NCBI GenBank assembly: GCA_037137395.1
Contig: JBAXKK010000059.1
Coordinates: 1 to 16,765 of the forward strand
Length of the DNA stretch: 16,765 nucleotides
Direction: 5' to 3'
Source of the DNA: Elusimicrobiota bacterium
GTDB lineage: Bacteria > Elusimicrobiota > Elusimicrobia > Elusimicrobiales > UBA9959
Shown: one piece after another, positions 6,497 through 13,386 of the stretch
Layout of the letters: every line of letters begins with the position of its first letter
Numbering within the stretch: the first letter of the stretch is position 1
Program-made: the position numbers and the translations under genes
Notes under the pieces: model-generated
What the model was told of the DNA's origin: nothing
The model's input: the letters and a program-made list of their open reading frames with translations, nothing else
Database searches by the model: none

Positions 6497-7249
6497 TTAC
6501 TCCAGCTTGGACAGAATGGAGTCCGGAATGTCAAAATTGGAATGGACCTTCTGCACATCATCGTGGTCCTCCAGATTATTCATCAGGTTGACAACCTGCT
6601 GGGCCTTATCTTCTCCCACTTTGACTTCATTTTTGGGGAGCATTGTCAGCTCAGCCAGAACGATGGGGATCTTGCGCTCTTCCAGCTTTTTCTTTACGGA
6701 CTCGAAGTCCGCCGGGGCGGTGATTATCTCATATTCGTCTGATTCAGATTGCGACTTAAAATCTTCGGCGCCGATATCCAAGGCCAACGTCATCAACTCA
6801 TCTTCCTTGGCATCGGATTTTTTTACTGAGATATATCCTTTCGGCTCGAACATCCAGGCCACGCTGCCGGTGCTGGCGATATTGCCGCCGGAAACCTCAA
6901 ATATTTTTCGTATTTCGCTGAAAACCCGGTTCCGGTTGTCGGTCGTAACTTCCACAAGAACAGCGATGCCGCCCGGGCCGTAGCCCTCGTACATTATTTC
7001 CTCGTAAGTCATGCCGGGCAATTGACCGGTGCCGCGCATGATGGCGCGTTTTACATTATCAACTGGCATATTGGCCTCTTTGGCGTCTTCCATAGCTTTG
7101 CGGAGGCGGGGATTTTCGTCAGGCTTACCGCCACCTATCTTGGCGGCCATGGCGATTTCTTTTATGATTCTCGTGAAGACTTTGCCTTTCTTCGCGTCCG
7201 TAATGGCTTTTTTGTGTTTTATTCCTGCCCAGTGAGAGTGTCCACCCAT
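6497..7249 (-). CDS. yebC: YebC/PmpR family protein
   Basis: MGGHSHWAGIKHKK, NPRLR, YEGYGPGG, TDNRNR and LEDHDDVQKVHSN motifs; usual position upstream of ruvC. Confidence 0.96.
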   Translation of the reverse strand: MGGHSHWAGIKHKKAITDAKKGKVFTRIIKEIAMAAKIGGGKPDENPRLRKAMEDAKEANMPVDNVKRAIMRGTGQLPGMTYEEIMYEGYGPGGIAVLVEVTTDNRNRVFSEIRKIFEVSGGNIASTGSVAWMFEPKGYISVKKSDAKEDELMTLALDIGAEDFKSQSESDEYEIITAPADFESVKKKLEERKIPIVLAELTMLPKNEVKVGEDKAQQVVNLMNNLEDHDDVQKVHSNFDIPDSILSKLE

Positions 7250-7268
7250 AATCGGCTCCTTTGCCTCC

Positions 7269-7355
7269 AGAGGGCTGGAGGATTAGAGGATTGGAGGATT
7301 GACCGAAGCGGTTTATATCCTGCTGGTCTAAAATCCTAAGAATCCTCAGTCGTCT
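7269..7355. repeat. Inverted pair of degenerate octamer repeats (RGAGGATT family)
   Basis: agagggct ggaggatt agaggatt ggaggatt (7269-7300), opposed by looser aatcctaa / aatcctc units (about 7316-7355). Confidence 0.7.
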
Positions 7356-7402
7356 CTGTTATATTGTTAAAATTCAACTTTTGCACGCGACTCAGTAAAT
7401 AA

Positions 7403-7431
7403 ATTCTATAATAATACGCGGTCTTTCACAA
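7403..7431 (-). promoter_or_regulatory. Putative sigma70 promoter for the yebC-ruvCAB-...-secD operon
   Basis: Minus strand TTGTGA (7431-7426), 17-nt spacer, TAGAAT (7408-7403). Same TTATAGAAT context as the promoter at 12764. Confidence 0.6.
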
Positions 7432-7443
7432 GACCTGCGGATG

Positions 7444-7524
7444 ACTGGTTAATGATTAACGGCGAGTGTTAAGGCAACCGAGGCGTCATCAATATCCGCG
7501 ATTAACCACTAACCACTCGCCACT
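7444..7524. repeat. Inverted pair of degenerate heptamer repeats (AGTGGTT family)
   Basis: actggtt aatgatt aacggcg agtgtta (7444-7471) versus aaccact aaccact cgccact (7504-7524), directly upstream of the tRNA. Confidence 0.7.
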
Positions 7525-7532
7525 TGATTTAT

Positions 7533-7606
7533 GCCCCCTTAGCTCAACTGGATAGAGCAACTGCCTTCGGAGCAGTAGGTTAGAGGTTCGAACCCTCTAG
7601 GGGGCA
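7533..7606 (+). tRNA. tRNA-Arg(TCG); CCA not encoded
   Basis: Cloverleaf: acceptor GCCCCCT/AGGGGGC, D-arm GCTC/GAGC, anticodon arm ACTGC-CTTCGGA-GCAGT (TCG at 7567-7569), T-arm AGAGG-TTCGAAC-CCTCT. Confidence 0.96.
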
Positions 7607-7772
7607 CAATTTTTGCGACCAACTAAGCGCGTCAACTGCTTGACGCGCGTGAGGGTTCGAAAGCCGGAGCGATGGCGAGCCAGAAGGCGAGTCCGCGAGG
7701 CGGGGCCGAAGGGCCGGTGGAGCGACGGCGACACCGGAACCTGTGGCCGAACCCTCTAGGGGGCACAATTTT
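7589..7772 (+). repeat. 25-bp direct repeat of the tRNA 3' end (att-like) bracketing a structured 134-bp insert
   Basis: cgaaccctctagggggcacaatttt occurs at 7589-7613 and 7748-7772. Confidence 0.9.
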
Positions 7773-7800
7773 AGGTTATTGCAACTGGATGCAATAACCT
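7773..7800. other. Perfect 11-bp hairpin after the duplicated tRNA end
   Basis: aggttattgca-actgga-tgcaataacct; no U-tract on the + strand. Confidence 0.7.
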
Positions 7801-7889
7801 GCCATTAGCCGTTTGCCATAGGCCGTACGCAGAAAGCTCAAAAGGGAAGTTCTTTAAAAGCGTATGGCTAATGGCATAAGGCAAATGGC
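7801..7889. repeat. Inverted pair of degenerate heptamer repeats (GCCATWW family)
   Basis: gccatta gccgttt gccatag gccgtac gc (7801-7830) versus gcgtatg gctaatg gcataag gcaaatg gc (7860-7889). Confidence 0.85.
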
Positions 7890-7960
7890 GGGCTCTCGCT
7901 GTCACAATTTCGTAATCTATCCTTAATGTTCCTGAAAAACGGATATAAGACAATATATAT

Positions 7961-10900
7961 ATGTCATCTGACAAACACCTTGTAAACATTAGGCAAATAT
8001 TTTCAGTACAATTCCTTACTTGCGTCCTGGCAGGCGTATTGTTGGGAGTGTTCTCCGCGCCCGCGGCGGCCGGCAAGCGCAAGGCGCCGGTCAGGCTGTC
8101 CCCGTTATCCGATTCGCTCAGAAAAACCGGAAAGGTCCCGGATTCCGCGGCCCGCGACGCGTTTCGCGGCTTCACAAAAAAAACAGGGACGGATGCCTGG
8201 CGCGTGCGGTACAGCCCTAAAACCGCTCTGCCGGAAGCCATTGTCGGCGCAAAAACTTCAAGATATCCCGGAACCCCTGCGCAAGCCGCCATCGCTTTTT
8301 TAAATGATAACAAGGATCTGCTTAAAGTTGATGTCACTCAGCTGCGCCAGGCTTATTCAAAAGTTTTCATGGGCGTCACGCATATCCAGTACGAGCAGAT
8401 CTATAACTCAATACCTGTAGAATTCGCCTACGTCAGAGTGCATATCAGCCCCTCAGGGGAGGTAACTGGTTACCAAGCTAAATTTGAGCCCGATATTAAT
8501 GTCCGGCTCTCTCCCGCGTTCCCCGCCTCTTACGCGGAAAGCGCCGTGCTTTCCGATCTGGGTTTTTCGGCGCGGATTACGGACCGGACTTTAGTACTTT
8601 TTCCTGACCAGACGGCAGACGGCGCTTTAAAACTGGCATGGAAGATACGCGCCCGAGCATCCGACACCGCAAGCGGCGTCTGGTTGTATTATGTCGGCGC
8701 AGAAGATGGCAAGATCCTTTTCCGTTATAATGACCTGCGCTACGCCTGCCCCGATAACACTAAATCCACCGGCACCGTGAAAGGGTCGGTCTACGCCATC
8801 TCACCGGCCCCGACCGACACCAGTCGCACCATAACGCGCGAATCCTGGACTCAGCCCGCGTCCAATATTCCTATCAACAATCAATATGTATGGGTCACAG
8901 GCGACCTGAGTTTTCCGACAAAGACTACCACCGCAGCCGGAGAATATTGCAGCGCGGCGGCCGGCAAGGTGTTCGCTTCGCTTAAGGGACCGTTTTTTTC
9001 CGTAGTCAACTTTCGCGGCCCAAGCGCCCATTTTGATAATGGAGGCGGATTGTGGCGTTCTGTTTCAACCGCGGTGACCAGCCCGATTCCCTACGCCAAT
9101 TCAAAGACCTATGATTACGCGGTCACCGTGCCTAATGACTGGTCCATTCAGGGCCAGGCTTTCGCGAAGGTGATGCCGCATTTTACGTCTTTCAGCGTGG
9201 GTGAGATGGGCATCGATGGGACCATTAATGATGCCGACCAGCTGAATGTAAAAAACGGAAATGATGTCGTCGCCAGCTATATCGGCACCAGAAGCCAGCC
9301 ATTTTTCGGCGCGGCAGTTGAAAACTCTTCTTACGGCCTGTCTCTTGAGACCGATGAGGCCGGTACGTTCAATGGTTTCTCAGTGGATGTATCAAGCTAC
9401 CTGGTCCTCGCAAACGCTCCTCTCGTTAGGAATAACGCCACCGGCTCCATAGTCTGGTCAACCGGTACGCCCGGAGTATTCATGGATAGCTTGCTGGGCG
9501 GCGTGGAAAACACTTTGGCGGAAGTTAACGCGTTTTATCACCTGAATGCGGCTTACGATTATTTTAAATTAGTAAACCTTGGCCCCGGCGGCCCGTTCGC
9601 CGATCTTTCATCCAACCAGGTGCCTGTTATGGTTCACGCGCATGGCACGGCGGACAACATCGCGGAAGCGGGGGGGATGGAGAACGCGTTTTACGATCTG
9701 GAAAAGGACAATATCTTTCTGGGCGACGGGCCGATGATAGACGGCAGCTACAGATCTTTTGCCCTAGACGGGACCATTATCCGCCACGAGTATATCCACC
9801 GGGTGGTAAATAGGATCTATCCCATTATAAACTTCGGCGAGTTCGGAGCTGTTTCCGAAGCGATGGCTGACTATTTCTCGCTGGCTTCATTTAAACAGGC
9901 GGGCACGCTTACGCCTGAGGGCGGCGTCCTGAATGTGCTCGGCAACTTCGTGGGCGGCGGTGGAGAAGGCATGGCCAGGGATCTGTCCGGCGCGTCTAAA
10001 TCCATGCCGACGGATTGGACCGGAGAAGTGCATGATGATAGTTTGATCCTGTCGCAAACTCTGTGGCAGTTGAAGGACATGGGTAGTTTCAGCGCTATCA
10101 GCGCTTTCCCGAACATGCCAAAAGCTGATGTGTTCACCTACGCGGCGCTCTTCTATTTCCCCGATAATTTCGCGAATTTTTACGATGCATTTGTCGAAGC
10201 CTGCAAACTTCTGGACGCCGGCTGCACCGTGAAAGCGCAAATTGACGCCGCTTTTACAGCGCACGGGATTCCAGCCTATAGCGGAGCGGGCGATACTTAC
10301 GACCAGCCCGTTACCGGCACATTATGCGACAATAATAACGGCCCCGAATGCGCCACCGATGTGAGCACGATGACAGCGCTGTCGGCCACTGTCTATCCGG
10401 CAGGCGATGTCGACTATTATTCCATCCCGCTCCAAGAGGGGAATTTTACAGCCGTTTTGAGCATGCCCGCAACAGCTAACCCTGATTATTACTCTCCTTA
10501 CACGTTGTTTCTCATAGATGCGGACCGTAACCTGGTCACTTACCCCGACGGCAGCGAAGCGCTTGTCACGCCGACAATATCCAACAGCTATACCGACTTC
10601 TGCGAGGATGAGAATTGCATCACCGATTCTTCAACCGTTTCGCTCACTTACTCTATAACAAATCCGGGCAGATATTACATTGGCGTGTCCGGCGCCCTCG
10701 GCATGTATTCAGGCAACTCCAGGGTCGCGTCTCTCCTGCCCTATTCCCTTCAATTATCCTACGCTCCCAAAGGCTCAGCTTCCGCAAGCATGAATACAGC
10801 TAAATATGATCAGGATATTATAAGTTTCACCGTGCCCTACACAAACTTCCCCGTCACCGTCGCGCCCTCTTCCTCCACGCTTACTGGAGCCGAATCGGTT

Positions 10901-11464
10901 TTCGCGTACGCCCAGCTGCGCGATCATAATTTTCAGCCGATAGCTTTGGCCCGCACTGATTACACACCTGCTTCCGGCAGACTTCTTTCAGTTCCATCCC
11001 TACCCTCCAAGTCCTCTGATCACCTCGGCAGGCCGATTTTATCCGGTACGGTCAGCCTTAACTCTGGATTCGCCCTCCGCTATCCCGGAGTAGGCACGGT
11101 ATACCTTGAGGTCTTCGGGCGAAACCATATGGGAAGCGTGATGTCGCTGGGCGTTTCCAACGCGATTAATCTCACCGCGAATAAGTCCGATATTATCGCC
11201 TACAATAATATCCTGACGGGAACCGGCGACCGCGCCCTGATAAAATATGAGCTTCAGACCGCCGGAGAACTGACCATTAAGATTTACACCGTCACCGGCT
11301 CCTTGGTTAAAACACTATTTTCAGGAGGCGTAAGTGCCGGCAAGGGCACTATAGACTGGGACGGGACCAACAACAACGGCGCCAAGGTGGCCAGCGGCAT
11401 CTATTACATAAAAGGAGTTGGTCCGGGGCTGGACGCGGTAGACAAGATAGCTGTCGTACGATAA
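7961..11464 (+). CDS. Secreted M4/M36-like zinc metallopeptidase: FTP and PepSY-like propeptide, CUB-like insert, PPC-like domain, C-terminal FlgD-Ig/T9SS-CTD-like domain
   Basis: Signal peptide ending SAPAAA; FTP-like THIQYEQIYNSIPVE; PepSY-like LAWKI..WLYYVGAEDGKIL; NAFY; HEYIH (9785-9799) with Glu of SEAMAD 20 residues after the second His; EVHDDS; GDVDYY; tail IKIYTVTGSLVKTL..WDGTNNNGAKVASGIYYIK..KIAVVR. Start codon uncertain (no clear RBS). Confidence 0.85.
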   Translation: MSSDKHLVNIRQIFSVQFLTCVLAGVLLGVFSAPAAAGKRKAPVRLSPLSDSLRKTGKVPDSAARDAFRGFTKKTGTDAWRVRYSPKTALPEAIVGAKTSRYPGTPAQAAIAFLNDNKDLLKVDVTQLRQAYSKVFMGVTHIQYEQIYNSIPVEFAYVRVHISPSGEVTGYQAKFEPDINVRLSPAFPASYAESAVLSDLGFSARITDRTLVLFPDQTADGALKLAWKIRARASDTASGVWLYYVGAEDGKILFRYNDLRYACPDNTKSTGTVKGSVYAISPAPTDTSRTITRESWTQPASNIPINNQYVWVTGDLSFPTKTTTAAGEYCSAAAGKVFASLKGPFFSVVNFRGPSAHFDNGGGLWRSVSTAVTSPIPYANSKTYDYAVTVPNDWSIQGQAFAKVMPHFTSFSVGEMGIDGTINDADQLNVKNGNDVVASYIGTRSQPFFGAAVENSSYGLSLETDEAGTFNGFSVDVSSYLVLANAPLVRNNATGSIVWSTGTPGVFMDSLLGGVENTLAEVNAFYHLNAAYDYFKLVNLGPGGPFADLSSNQVPVMVHAHGTADNIAEAGGMENAFYDLEKDNIFLGDGPMIDGSYRSFALDGTIIRHEYIHRVVNRIYPIINFGEFGAVSEAMADYFSLASFKQAGTLTPEGGVLNVLGNFVGGGGEGMARDLSGASKSMPTDWTGEVHDDSLILSQTLWQLKDMGSFSAISAFPNMPKADVFTYAALFYFPDNFANFYDAFVEACKLLDAGCTVKAQIDAAFTAHGIPAYSGAGDTYDQPVTGTLCDNNNGPECATDVSTMTALSATVYPAGDVDYYSIPLQEGNFTAVLSMPATANPDYYSPYTLFLIDADRNLVTYPDGSEALVTPTISNSYTDFCEDENCITDSSTVSLTYSITNPGRYYIGVSGALGMYSGNSRVASLLPYSLQLSYAPKGSASASMNTAKYDQDIISFTVPYTNFPVTVAPSSSTLTGAESVFAYAQLRDHNFQPIALARTDYTPASGRLLSVPSLPSKSSDHLGRPILSGTVSLNSGFALRYPGVGTVYLEVFGRNHMGSVMSLGVSNAINLTANKSDIIAYNNILTGTGDRALIKYELQTAGELTIKIYTVTGSLVKTLFSGGVSAGKGTIDWDGTNNNGAKVASGIYYIKGVGPGLDAVDKIAVVR

Positions 11465-13350: not shown

Positions 13351-13386
13351 TTTCTGCGTATGGCCAATGGCATACGGCAAATGGCA
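13351..13386 (+). repeat. Solo copy of the GCCATWW-family heptamer arm
   Basis: gcgtatggccaatggcatacggcaaatggc (13356-13385) matches 7860-7889 at 28/30; 13351-13386 matches the reverse complement of 7800-7835 at 32/36. Confidence 0.85.

Follow-up and report, generated by a model that had tools for sequence, protein, structure and literature searches.

A small non-coding unit behind tRNA-Arg(TCG) in an Elusimicrobiota genome carries an antisense arm matched to its host gene

The tRNA-linked repeats (TLRs) of E. coli have been known since 1978; 22 of them, at ten loci, are defined by a terminal copy of 18-19 nt of the gene end, and the source gives no known function for them (PMC8144298). They are small non-coding units that lie right behind a tRNA gene, end in a copy of its 3' end and are often tandem (PMC8144298). 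In its passages on TLRs, this paper mentions neither an inverted arm nor mobility. The full-text literature, which did not reach Rudd 1999, Egan and Landy 1978 and Bosl and Kersten 1991, yielded no published host-matched TLR arm and no TLR mobility, and prior notice of the arm is possible. Raised mobilome coverage has been described at tyrT-rttR, and such signals at RNA genes were read as RNA/DNA hybrids and not as circles (bioRxiv 10.1101/2024.07.17.603846).

Other described systems share parts of what we report here. Tyrosine-integrase islands, ICEs and IMEs resemble our unit in their target spectrum (the 3' ends of tRNA genes, rpsI and rplL), in the replacement of the gene end and in the displacement of the host end. 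REP/REPIN-RAYT and IS200/IS605 are non-autonomous folded single-strand elements; in IS200/IS605 the target is recognised through guide base pairing. The likeness to integron attC sites lies in a structure that is kept over sequence, one preferred strand, a possible microhomology at the cut and occasional single-gene arrays (PMC4792948). In attP(+) of CTXphi, an IMEX on whose folded single-stranded DNA the host XerC acts, two inverted target-like segments form a duplex site, a single strand is exchanged and tandem copies occur (PMC3442271).

We analysed contig JBAXKK010000059.1 of an Elusimicrobiota genome (UBA9959; hereafter G000), and the window is this whole stretch of 16,765 nt. Its sole tRNA gene, tRNA-Arg(TCG), lies on the + strand at 7533-7607 (7533-7606 by the Rfam bounds), with T54 at 7587 and C56 at 7589. 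As an earlier note on this DNA had reported, the 3' end of the gene is repeated exactly 159 nt downstream: the 25 nt at 7589-7613, which comprise tRNA positions 56-73 and trailer (19 nt of tRNA and 6 nt of trailer) and complete the gene, are identical to those at 7748-7772, where the second copy likewise begins at C56. The whole unit (7589-7747) is 159 nt long, and all its parts are given on the + strand. Behind the first copy come an antisense piece at 7618-7625, in a slot complementary to tRNA positions 65-72 and decayed in the window copy (5 of 8 matches); a hairpin at 7626-7650, of a fixed length of 24-25 nt, which splits the antisense arm between tRNA positions 64 and 65; a second antisense piece at 7651-7661, the exact complement of tRNA positions 54-64 (7587-7597), two bases of which match the target outside the duplicated segment; and a GC-rich core of 86 nt at 7662-7747, with two branched stems of conserved structure, whose last base (7747) closes a stem exactly at the junction. 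The decayed piece and the 25-nt hairpin were absent from the earlier note; the inverted copy that it described is indeed an exact reverse complement (7651-7661 against 7587-7597), with a length of 11 nt and not 10. Compared with shuffles, the unit region folds with z -6.6 (DNA) and -6.5 (RNA).

The neighbours of the unit are housekeeping genes and a large secreted-type ORF. It had been claimed that the unit holds no credible ORF or integrase, and our data agree: the six-frame translation offers no ATG in frame for a credible ORF, no ORF of at least 80 aa in the ORF list covers the unit, and no integrase lies near it in the window. An Rfam search of the unit with gathering and E-value thresholds returned the tRNA only, and the covariance model of RtT (RF00391) had no match at E<=10 in G000 and none in 7560-7900. 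Judged from its sequence, the unit has the layout of TLRs and RtT (the 178-bp tyrT repeats) without detectable sequence homology to them: it is non-coding, lies directly downstream of a tRNA gene and ends in a copy of 19 tRNA and 6 trailer nt. TLR loci hold one to several units; the window locus has a single one, and tandem units occur in relatives.

Among 2353 sampled window positions, only one had an exact 25-nt copy within 260 nt, and this was the unit itself; none had an exact 11-nt inverted match within 200 nt. Since further 11-nt inverted repeats lie just downstream of the unit, the inverted copy is unremarkable when taken alone, and chance is ruled out because the inverted copy matches the host tRNA across many copies (see below). 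As to an assembly artefact, which had been named as a danger, an 888-nt contig of run X1 is collinear with 7137-8024 with 0 differences, although X1 is possibly the source sample and so not independent.

Homologues at other tRNAs and in other genomes, whose search had been proposed, were found. In G000, direct and antisense copies occur together at 7 of the 36 tRNA genes whose downstream sequence is long enough (mean 0.24 and maximum 2 in permutations). The core of the window unit has three further copies in this genome, at Arg(TCT), at Val(TAC) and at a tRNA-Met remnant, and it was matched in 88 of the 227 genomes of the order. Occupancy is patchy, with both arms at 8 of 20 tRNA-Arg(TCG) loci. 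Precise empty sites also exist: G001, a genome of the same genus, has the same tRNA and flanks exactly without the unit, and one contig of run X4 from another study (depth 3.9), which represents a near-identical strain, skips exactly the 159 nt while its 216 nt of flank differ at 1 position. These empty alleles could reflect gain or loss alike, and slippage between the repeats could yield losses. Taken together, comparative evidence argues that the units are mobile. Several other loci of G000 deserve mention. A second unit family with a different core and equally host-matched arms occurs on C24, C43, C62, C77 and C113, at tRNA-Cys, Gly, Leu, Thr and Glu. The unit at the tRNA-Met end remnant (C13:28430-28710) has no tRNA on its contig and is likely the far end of an island. 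Internally deleted unit remnants lie behind tRNA-Ala(CGC) and tRNA-Arg(CCG) on C5 and C8.

For the comparison of relatives, 75 elements were parsed and 71, at 19 tRNA types, were kept, 4 being dropped as mis-anchored or placed at the wrong tRNA; element positions were fixed by the core anchor and not by the arm match. We found a constant plan: tRNA end, spacer, antisense of 65-72, hairpin of 24-25 nt, antisense of 54-64, core (mostly 85-90 nt) and a direct copy from C56. Whether the inverted core co-varies with the host tRNA had been posed as a check, and the answer is clear: the antisense of positions 57-64 is perfect against its own tRNA in 60 of 71 elements (permuted mean 8.3, maximum 18 in 5000). 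The antisense of 65-72 has on average 6.5 of 8 matches (permuted 3.7), with 7 or 8 of 8 in 41 of the 71 relatives. This matching holds when the set is collapsed to 37 distinct host words, and at orthologous Arg(TCG) genes the arm mirrors single-base differences of the T-loop.

Cores that are 94-99% identical sit at different tRNAs whose target bases agree at just 6-13 of 16. On average, core identity amounts to 0.81 within a genus at different tRNAs and 0.77 between genera at the same tRNA. In a tree of 54 elements with cores of 85-90 nt, a weak one with 6 of 51 branches starred, the cores cluster by host genus and not by tRNA; gene conversion could produce this clustering. The fold is also conserved, with compensatory changes in relatives. 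Among kin sequences, found through similarity to the window copy, 98.3% of the cells of the inner fold are paired (32-40% in slid controls) and 20 of 27 pairs show compensatory change; in the hairpin that occupies the slot of 7626-7650, this holds for 6 of 7 pairs. The + strand of the core folds better than the - strand in all 53 sequences of alignment A2, which were drawn from the 54 of the tree.

The second piece of the arm (7651-7659) can pair with the second copy (7748-7756) in a 9-bp stem, as had been proposed, but the arm tracks the first copy instead. Where the two copies differ, it equals the upstream copy at 134 of 163 positions and the downstream copy at 8, positions that are non-independent owing to truncations; counted per element, it follows the upstream copy in 23 and the downstream copy in 1 of 64. 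Positions 54-55 lie outside the duplication, and when they are not TT the arm changes along in 13 of 15 cases, the 2 misses being cases that look mis-assigned. The direction of wobbles over 57-64 favours pairing on the + strand (5 vs 1), whereas over 65-72 A-C exceeds G-T on the + strand (19 vs 5), which lends no support to + strand pairing there. Beyond the tRNA, the arm matches the trailer in 27 cases and CCA in 24 (n=66).

In Patescibacteria the same core occurs at the ends of tRNA, tmRNA, rpsI and topA genes. The topA-end loci, assigned by Pfam, are L125, L165, L174, L216, L287, L356, L361, L368 and L389; the other protein-gene loci are L328 and L348 at rpsI, L238 at a gene that by eye is ribosomal L7/L12-like, and L123 after a DciA-family gene. 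The topA crossover lies about 70 nt before the stop, so both gene ends can be read as codons. Six long second copies at topA differ from the end in use by 72 silent and 18 replacement changes in 133 codons, and all 12 gene-end loci by 78 and 19 in 155 codons; the comparison ended at three successive amino-acid mismatches, which slightly favours silent counts. Such a silent excess would not be expected of a neutral copy decaying in place, in which mostly replacements should be seen. The mostly silent differences suggest that both ends were functional in different lineages and that one was brought by the unit. The arm matches the end in use at 7 of 9 loci, the downstream end at one (L174) and neither at one (L368). 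We infer that the topA end in use is the carried end, as at integrase attP sites, and that at topA members this carried end has replaced the host end. This evidence comes from the Patescibacteria subfamily and not from the window copy, in which both ends are identical and do not tell which replaced which; by analogy, the first copy (7589-7613) would be the element-borne gene end and the second (7748-7772) the displaced host end.

The 3' core pattern has at least 124 matches in at least 120 GTDB loci, mainly in Elusimicrobiota and Patescibacteria, and 84 of the matches listed lie within 400 nt of a tRNA or tmRNA. Matches that fall in GC-rich genes of other phyla appear to be fortuitous. Among the matches listed, 48 anchored cases come from outside Elusimicrobiota, and 23 of these have a perfect arm (null 1.1). 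A metagenome scan yielded 118 distinct units; 73 of them lie near 34 kinds of tRNA or tmRNA, and others are located where contigs end, at att remnants or at topA and rpsI ends. Viral contigs contained no true copy (0 matches in one search, 4 chance coding matches in others), phage sequences contained no copy, and plasmids gave no true copy and a single 40-nt haloarchaeal match.

Tandem units are common, with 19 pairs among the fetched loci, some of them redundant. Arrays of unit, one gene and unit behind a single tRNA or tmRNA, anticipated in the earlier note, exist but are few: they account for 4 of the 135 units with about 1.5 kb downstream (L130, L282, L303 and L346). The array gene of L282 matches indole-3-glycerol phosphate synthase (PF00218, E 3e-11), and the 84-aa ORF of L130 has no Pfam or NCBIfam match. 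L277 and L325 were rejected as cassette arrays, their second unit belonging to another tRNA. The arrays are cassette-like and rare, and accretion of small islands could also make them. Behind truncated second copies, 17 of 18 loci had no displaced remainder, or only matches of at most 12 nt, within 5-20 kb; at L098, additional copies of the tRNA end lie downstream.

A co-occurring recombinase or HUH nuclease, also anticipated, did not emerge: clustering of 748 open frames near units revealed no recurring recombinase, HUH or RT family. Tyrosine-recombinase motifs near units were two only, at least one of them at an island end. G000 has 6 tyrosine-recombinase, 4 Y1 and 1 RT matches, none next to a unit. 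In two of the 6 tyrosine-recombinase domains, which were scanned, Xer-type models scored above the integron model, all below the cut-off. In the 45 of 88 matched genomes that were profiled, some of them incomplete, Y1 was present in 26 and absent from 19, and RT was present in 16. The single reverse transcriptase of G000 (C52:12491-13186) falls below every NCBIfam cut-off; inspected by eye, it is similar to RTs of the DGR type. The contigs of 4 of the 22 listed runs contained no circular or go-back joint, and the proposed 159-bp circle was thus not seen among them.

These results set the family beside the known systems more closely. The E. coli K-12 TLRs at tyrT, tyrV, lysT, lysW, lysY, argV and proK also contain a short host-matched antisense stretch; compared with it, the arm of the window family matches more exactly and is in two pieces with a fixed hairpin between them. 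The TLR linked to the 5S gene rrfB (L262) has the direct copy and no clear antisense stretch, unlike the tRNA-linked TLRs. With attC the family shares a conserved single-strand fold with a predicted strand bias, but in contrast to an attC cassette the unit carries a target-matched gene end and is nearly always empty. The attC core boxes are R'' RYYYAAC and R' GTTRRRY, and neither occurs in the unit; no integron integrase or attI platform is present in the window. Considering also the rarity of cargo (4 of 135), the label integron-like, which the earlier note had offered, does not fit. Unlike CTXphi, the unit targets a tRNA T-loop or gene end and not dif, has no phage genes and has arms that vary with the target. 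It differs from islands, ICEs and IMEs in having no integrase, a length of about 160 nt, one core at dozens of targets and an internal antisense arm. REP/REPIN and IS200/IS605 elements, for their part, give no gene-end duplication, and Y1 is missing from the 19 unit-bearing genomes mentioned above.

We consider it about an even call that the unit moves as a folded + strand in the manner of attC and CTX and is integrated in trans by a tyrosine recombinase, without being an integron. The folded-strand idea of the earlier note would thereby survive in a corrected form, the duplex being made of the carried end and the antisense arm. According to this model, the unit would carry a replacement 3' end of its target gene. 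In a single-stranded form, the carried end would pair with the arm and give a dumbbell with a duplex half-site; the predicted fold of the 159-nt circle is a dumbbell with this stem. A tyrosine recombinase acting in trans would then exchange one strand at 55|56 and join the unit to the gene at C56, while the arm's two additional bases would test the target for microhomology by pairing with it on the 5' side of the cut, as attC and CTX attP(+) do. The junction would be resolved by replication, and the host's own end, pushed downstream, would become the second copy. When the chromosomal strand is refolded with RNA parameters, the tRNA 5' half is predicted to pair with the second copy and the first copy with the arm, the unit being looped out at the T-loop; such a loop-out would be a plausible excision substrate. 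The least certain step is retargeting, in which the unit would pick up a new gene end and rewrite its arm by hairpin template switching; that the switching takes place in the fold-back is a guess. The ends of rpsI, rplL and tRNA genes are known targets of tyrosine integrases (PMC4701971), and the folded strand has precedents in CTX attP(+) (PMC3442271) and attC (PMC4792948).

Other explanations have to be weighed against this model. It is rather unlikely that the unit is a minimal double-stranded integrative element, moved through its direct repeats by an ordinary tyrosine integrase that some passing island or phage supplies, while the arm and fold are either by-products, kept perfect through template switching at quasi-palindromes, or work as a terminator or as a structure that binds protein. 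The end replacement at topA and the target spectrum would suit any tyrosine-integrase attP, units also sit at island att remnants (L183 and C13 of G000), template switching does perfect inverted repeats (PMC5941160, PMC8604942), and in 4 of 64 elements long fold-backs extend through the trailer for up to 26-27 nt. However, 159 nt offer scant space for the arm sites of an integrase, the segment in common begins at C56 rather than with the first base of the 7-nt T-loop, the register of the arm around the constant-length hairpin does not vary, and one core family serves 19 to 34 RNAs as well as protein genes, unlike site-specific integrases. That the unit is what a deleted genomic island left behind, its inverted repeat being due to chance, is hardly credible. 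Duplicated tRNA 3' ends are typical of island ends, and the remnants on C5 and C8 show that units decay by deletion, yet the constant size and anatomy and the spread across phyla speak against a scar, and the host-matched arms and compensatory fold refute it; the earlier note was right to look beyond a decayed island.

The remaining alternatives place the function or the movement in RNA. An RNA-level device, in which the arm captures the first tRNA 3' strand in a read-through precursor, the second copy takes the place of this strand in the tRNA fold, and the unit is freed as a small RNA or as an RNA resembling a T-loop intron to regulate maturation or to act like the sRNAs RtT/RrB, seems improbable to us. 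Its strength is that the minimum-energy fold of the precursor is exactly this strand swap (z -5.5) and that the fold, which includes an invariant G-U pair, belongs to the transcribed strand; moreover, three rRNA operons of E. coli have TLRs that are transcribed and processed and that bind Hfq and CsrA (PMC8144298). Against it, 27 of 66 elements have an imperfect second copy over 57-72, and this copy is often truncated, terminator-like hairpins precede many units, occupancy of the tRNA-Arg(TCG) loci is patchy, and the same core lies at the ends of topA and rpsI, which offer no tRNA fold. We regard as still more improbable a non-autonomous retro-element, whose folded RNA would be reverse-transcribed into a nick in the T-loop with duplication of the target end, the arm being written by fold-back synthesis or serving as a tRNA primer-binding site. 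The repeat does have a fixed left and a variable right end, with small indels just past the junction, and the arm spans the tRNA 3' strand in the manner of a primer-binding site. The two topA ends are, however, silently diverged versions and not copies of each other, and RT is present in only 16 of the 45 unit-bearing genomes, some of which are incomplete.

If the units are mobile elements as proposed, they would explain the long-unexplained tRNA-linked repeats of E. coli, and the family makes TLRs testable, predicting a fixed point of crossover (C56), the strand used, a homology check of 2 bases, a gene end that travels with the unit and an arm that can be retargeted. Should the single-strand model be right, attC and CTX attP would be joined by a third natural recombination substrate made of a folded strand; its target would be chosen through base pairing, which might be of use for programmable insertion. 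The core is common to Elusimicrobia and Patescibacteria. A bolder reading, possible though doubtful, is that TLR-like units are widespread, protein-free, reprogrammable mobile DNA, in which a folded strand with an arm reading the target across the cut changes target when about 19 of its bases are rewritten, is inserted at the ends of tRNA and housekeeping genes by a tyrosine recombinase, the host's or a passing one, moves between phyla and is able to bracket single genes into cassette arrays. The layout, a TLR-like one, is of a known kind, and no enzyme or intermediate was found. For annotation, island finders would take such repeats for island scars.

Several further features were observed in and around the locus. 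A perfect 11-bp inverted repeat with a 6-nt loop (7773-7800) abuts the second copy and is present in the empty allele too. Another repeat family, made of 7-nt units in inverted pairs, lies at 7800-7890 and 13351-13386; its three-unit pattern has 72 sites on 43 contigs of G000, and in G001 it is found at the corresponding position, with 13 nt inserted. Short modules with GTGGAC and GGACAC at their borders occur at 21 sites of G000 (C26, C62, C65, C109 and others), often as inverted pairs, and look similar to IS ends; one of them sits inside the unit of C26. Finally, the ORF at 7961-11464 encodes 1167 aa with a fungalysin/thermolysin propeptide motif and a C-terminal FlgD Ig-like domain, and its product is probably a secreted metalloprotease-like protein.
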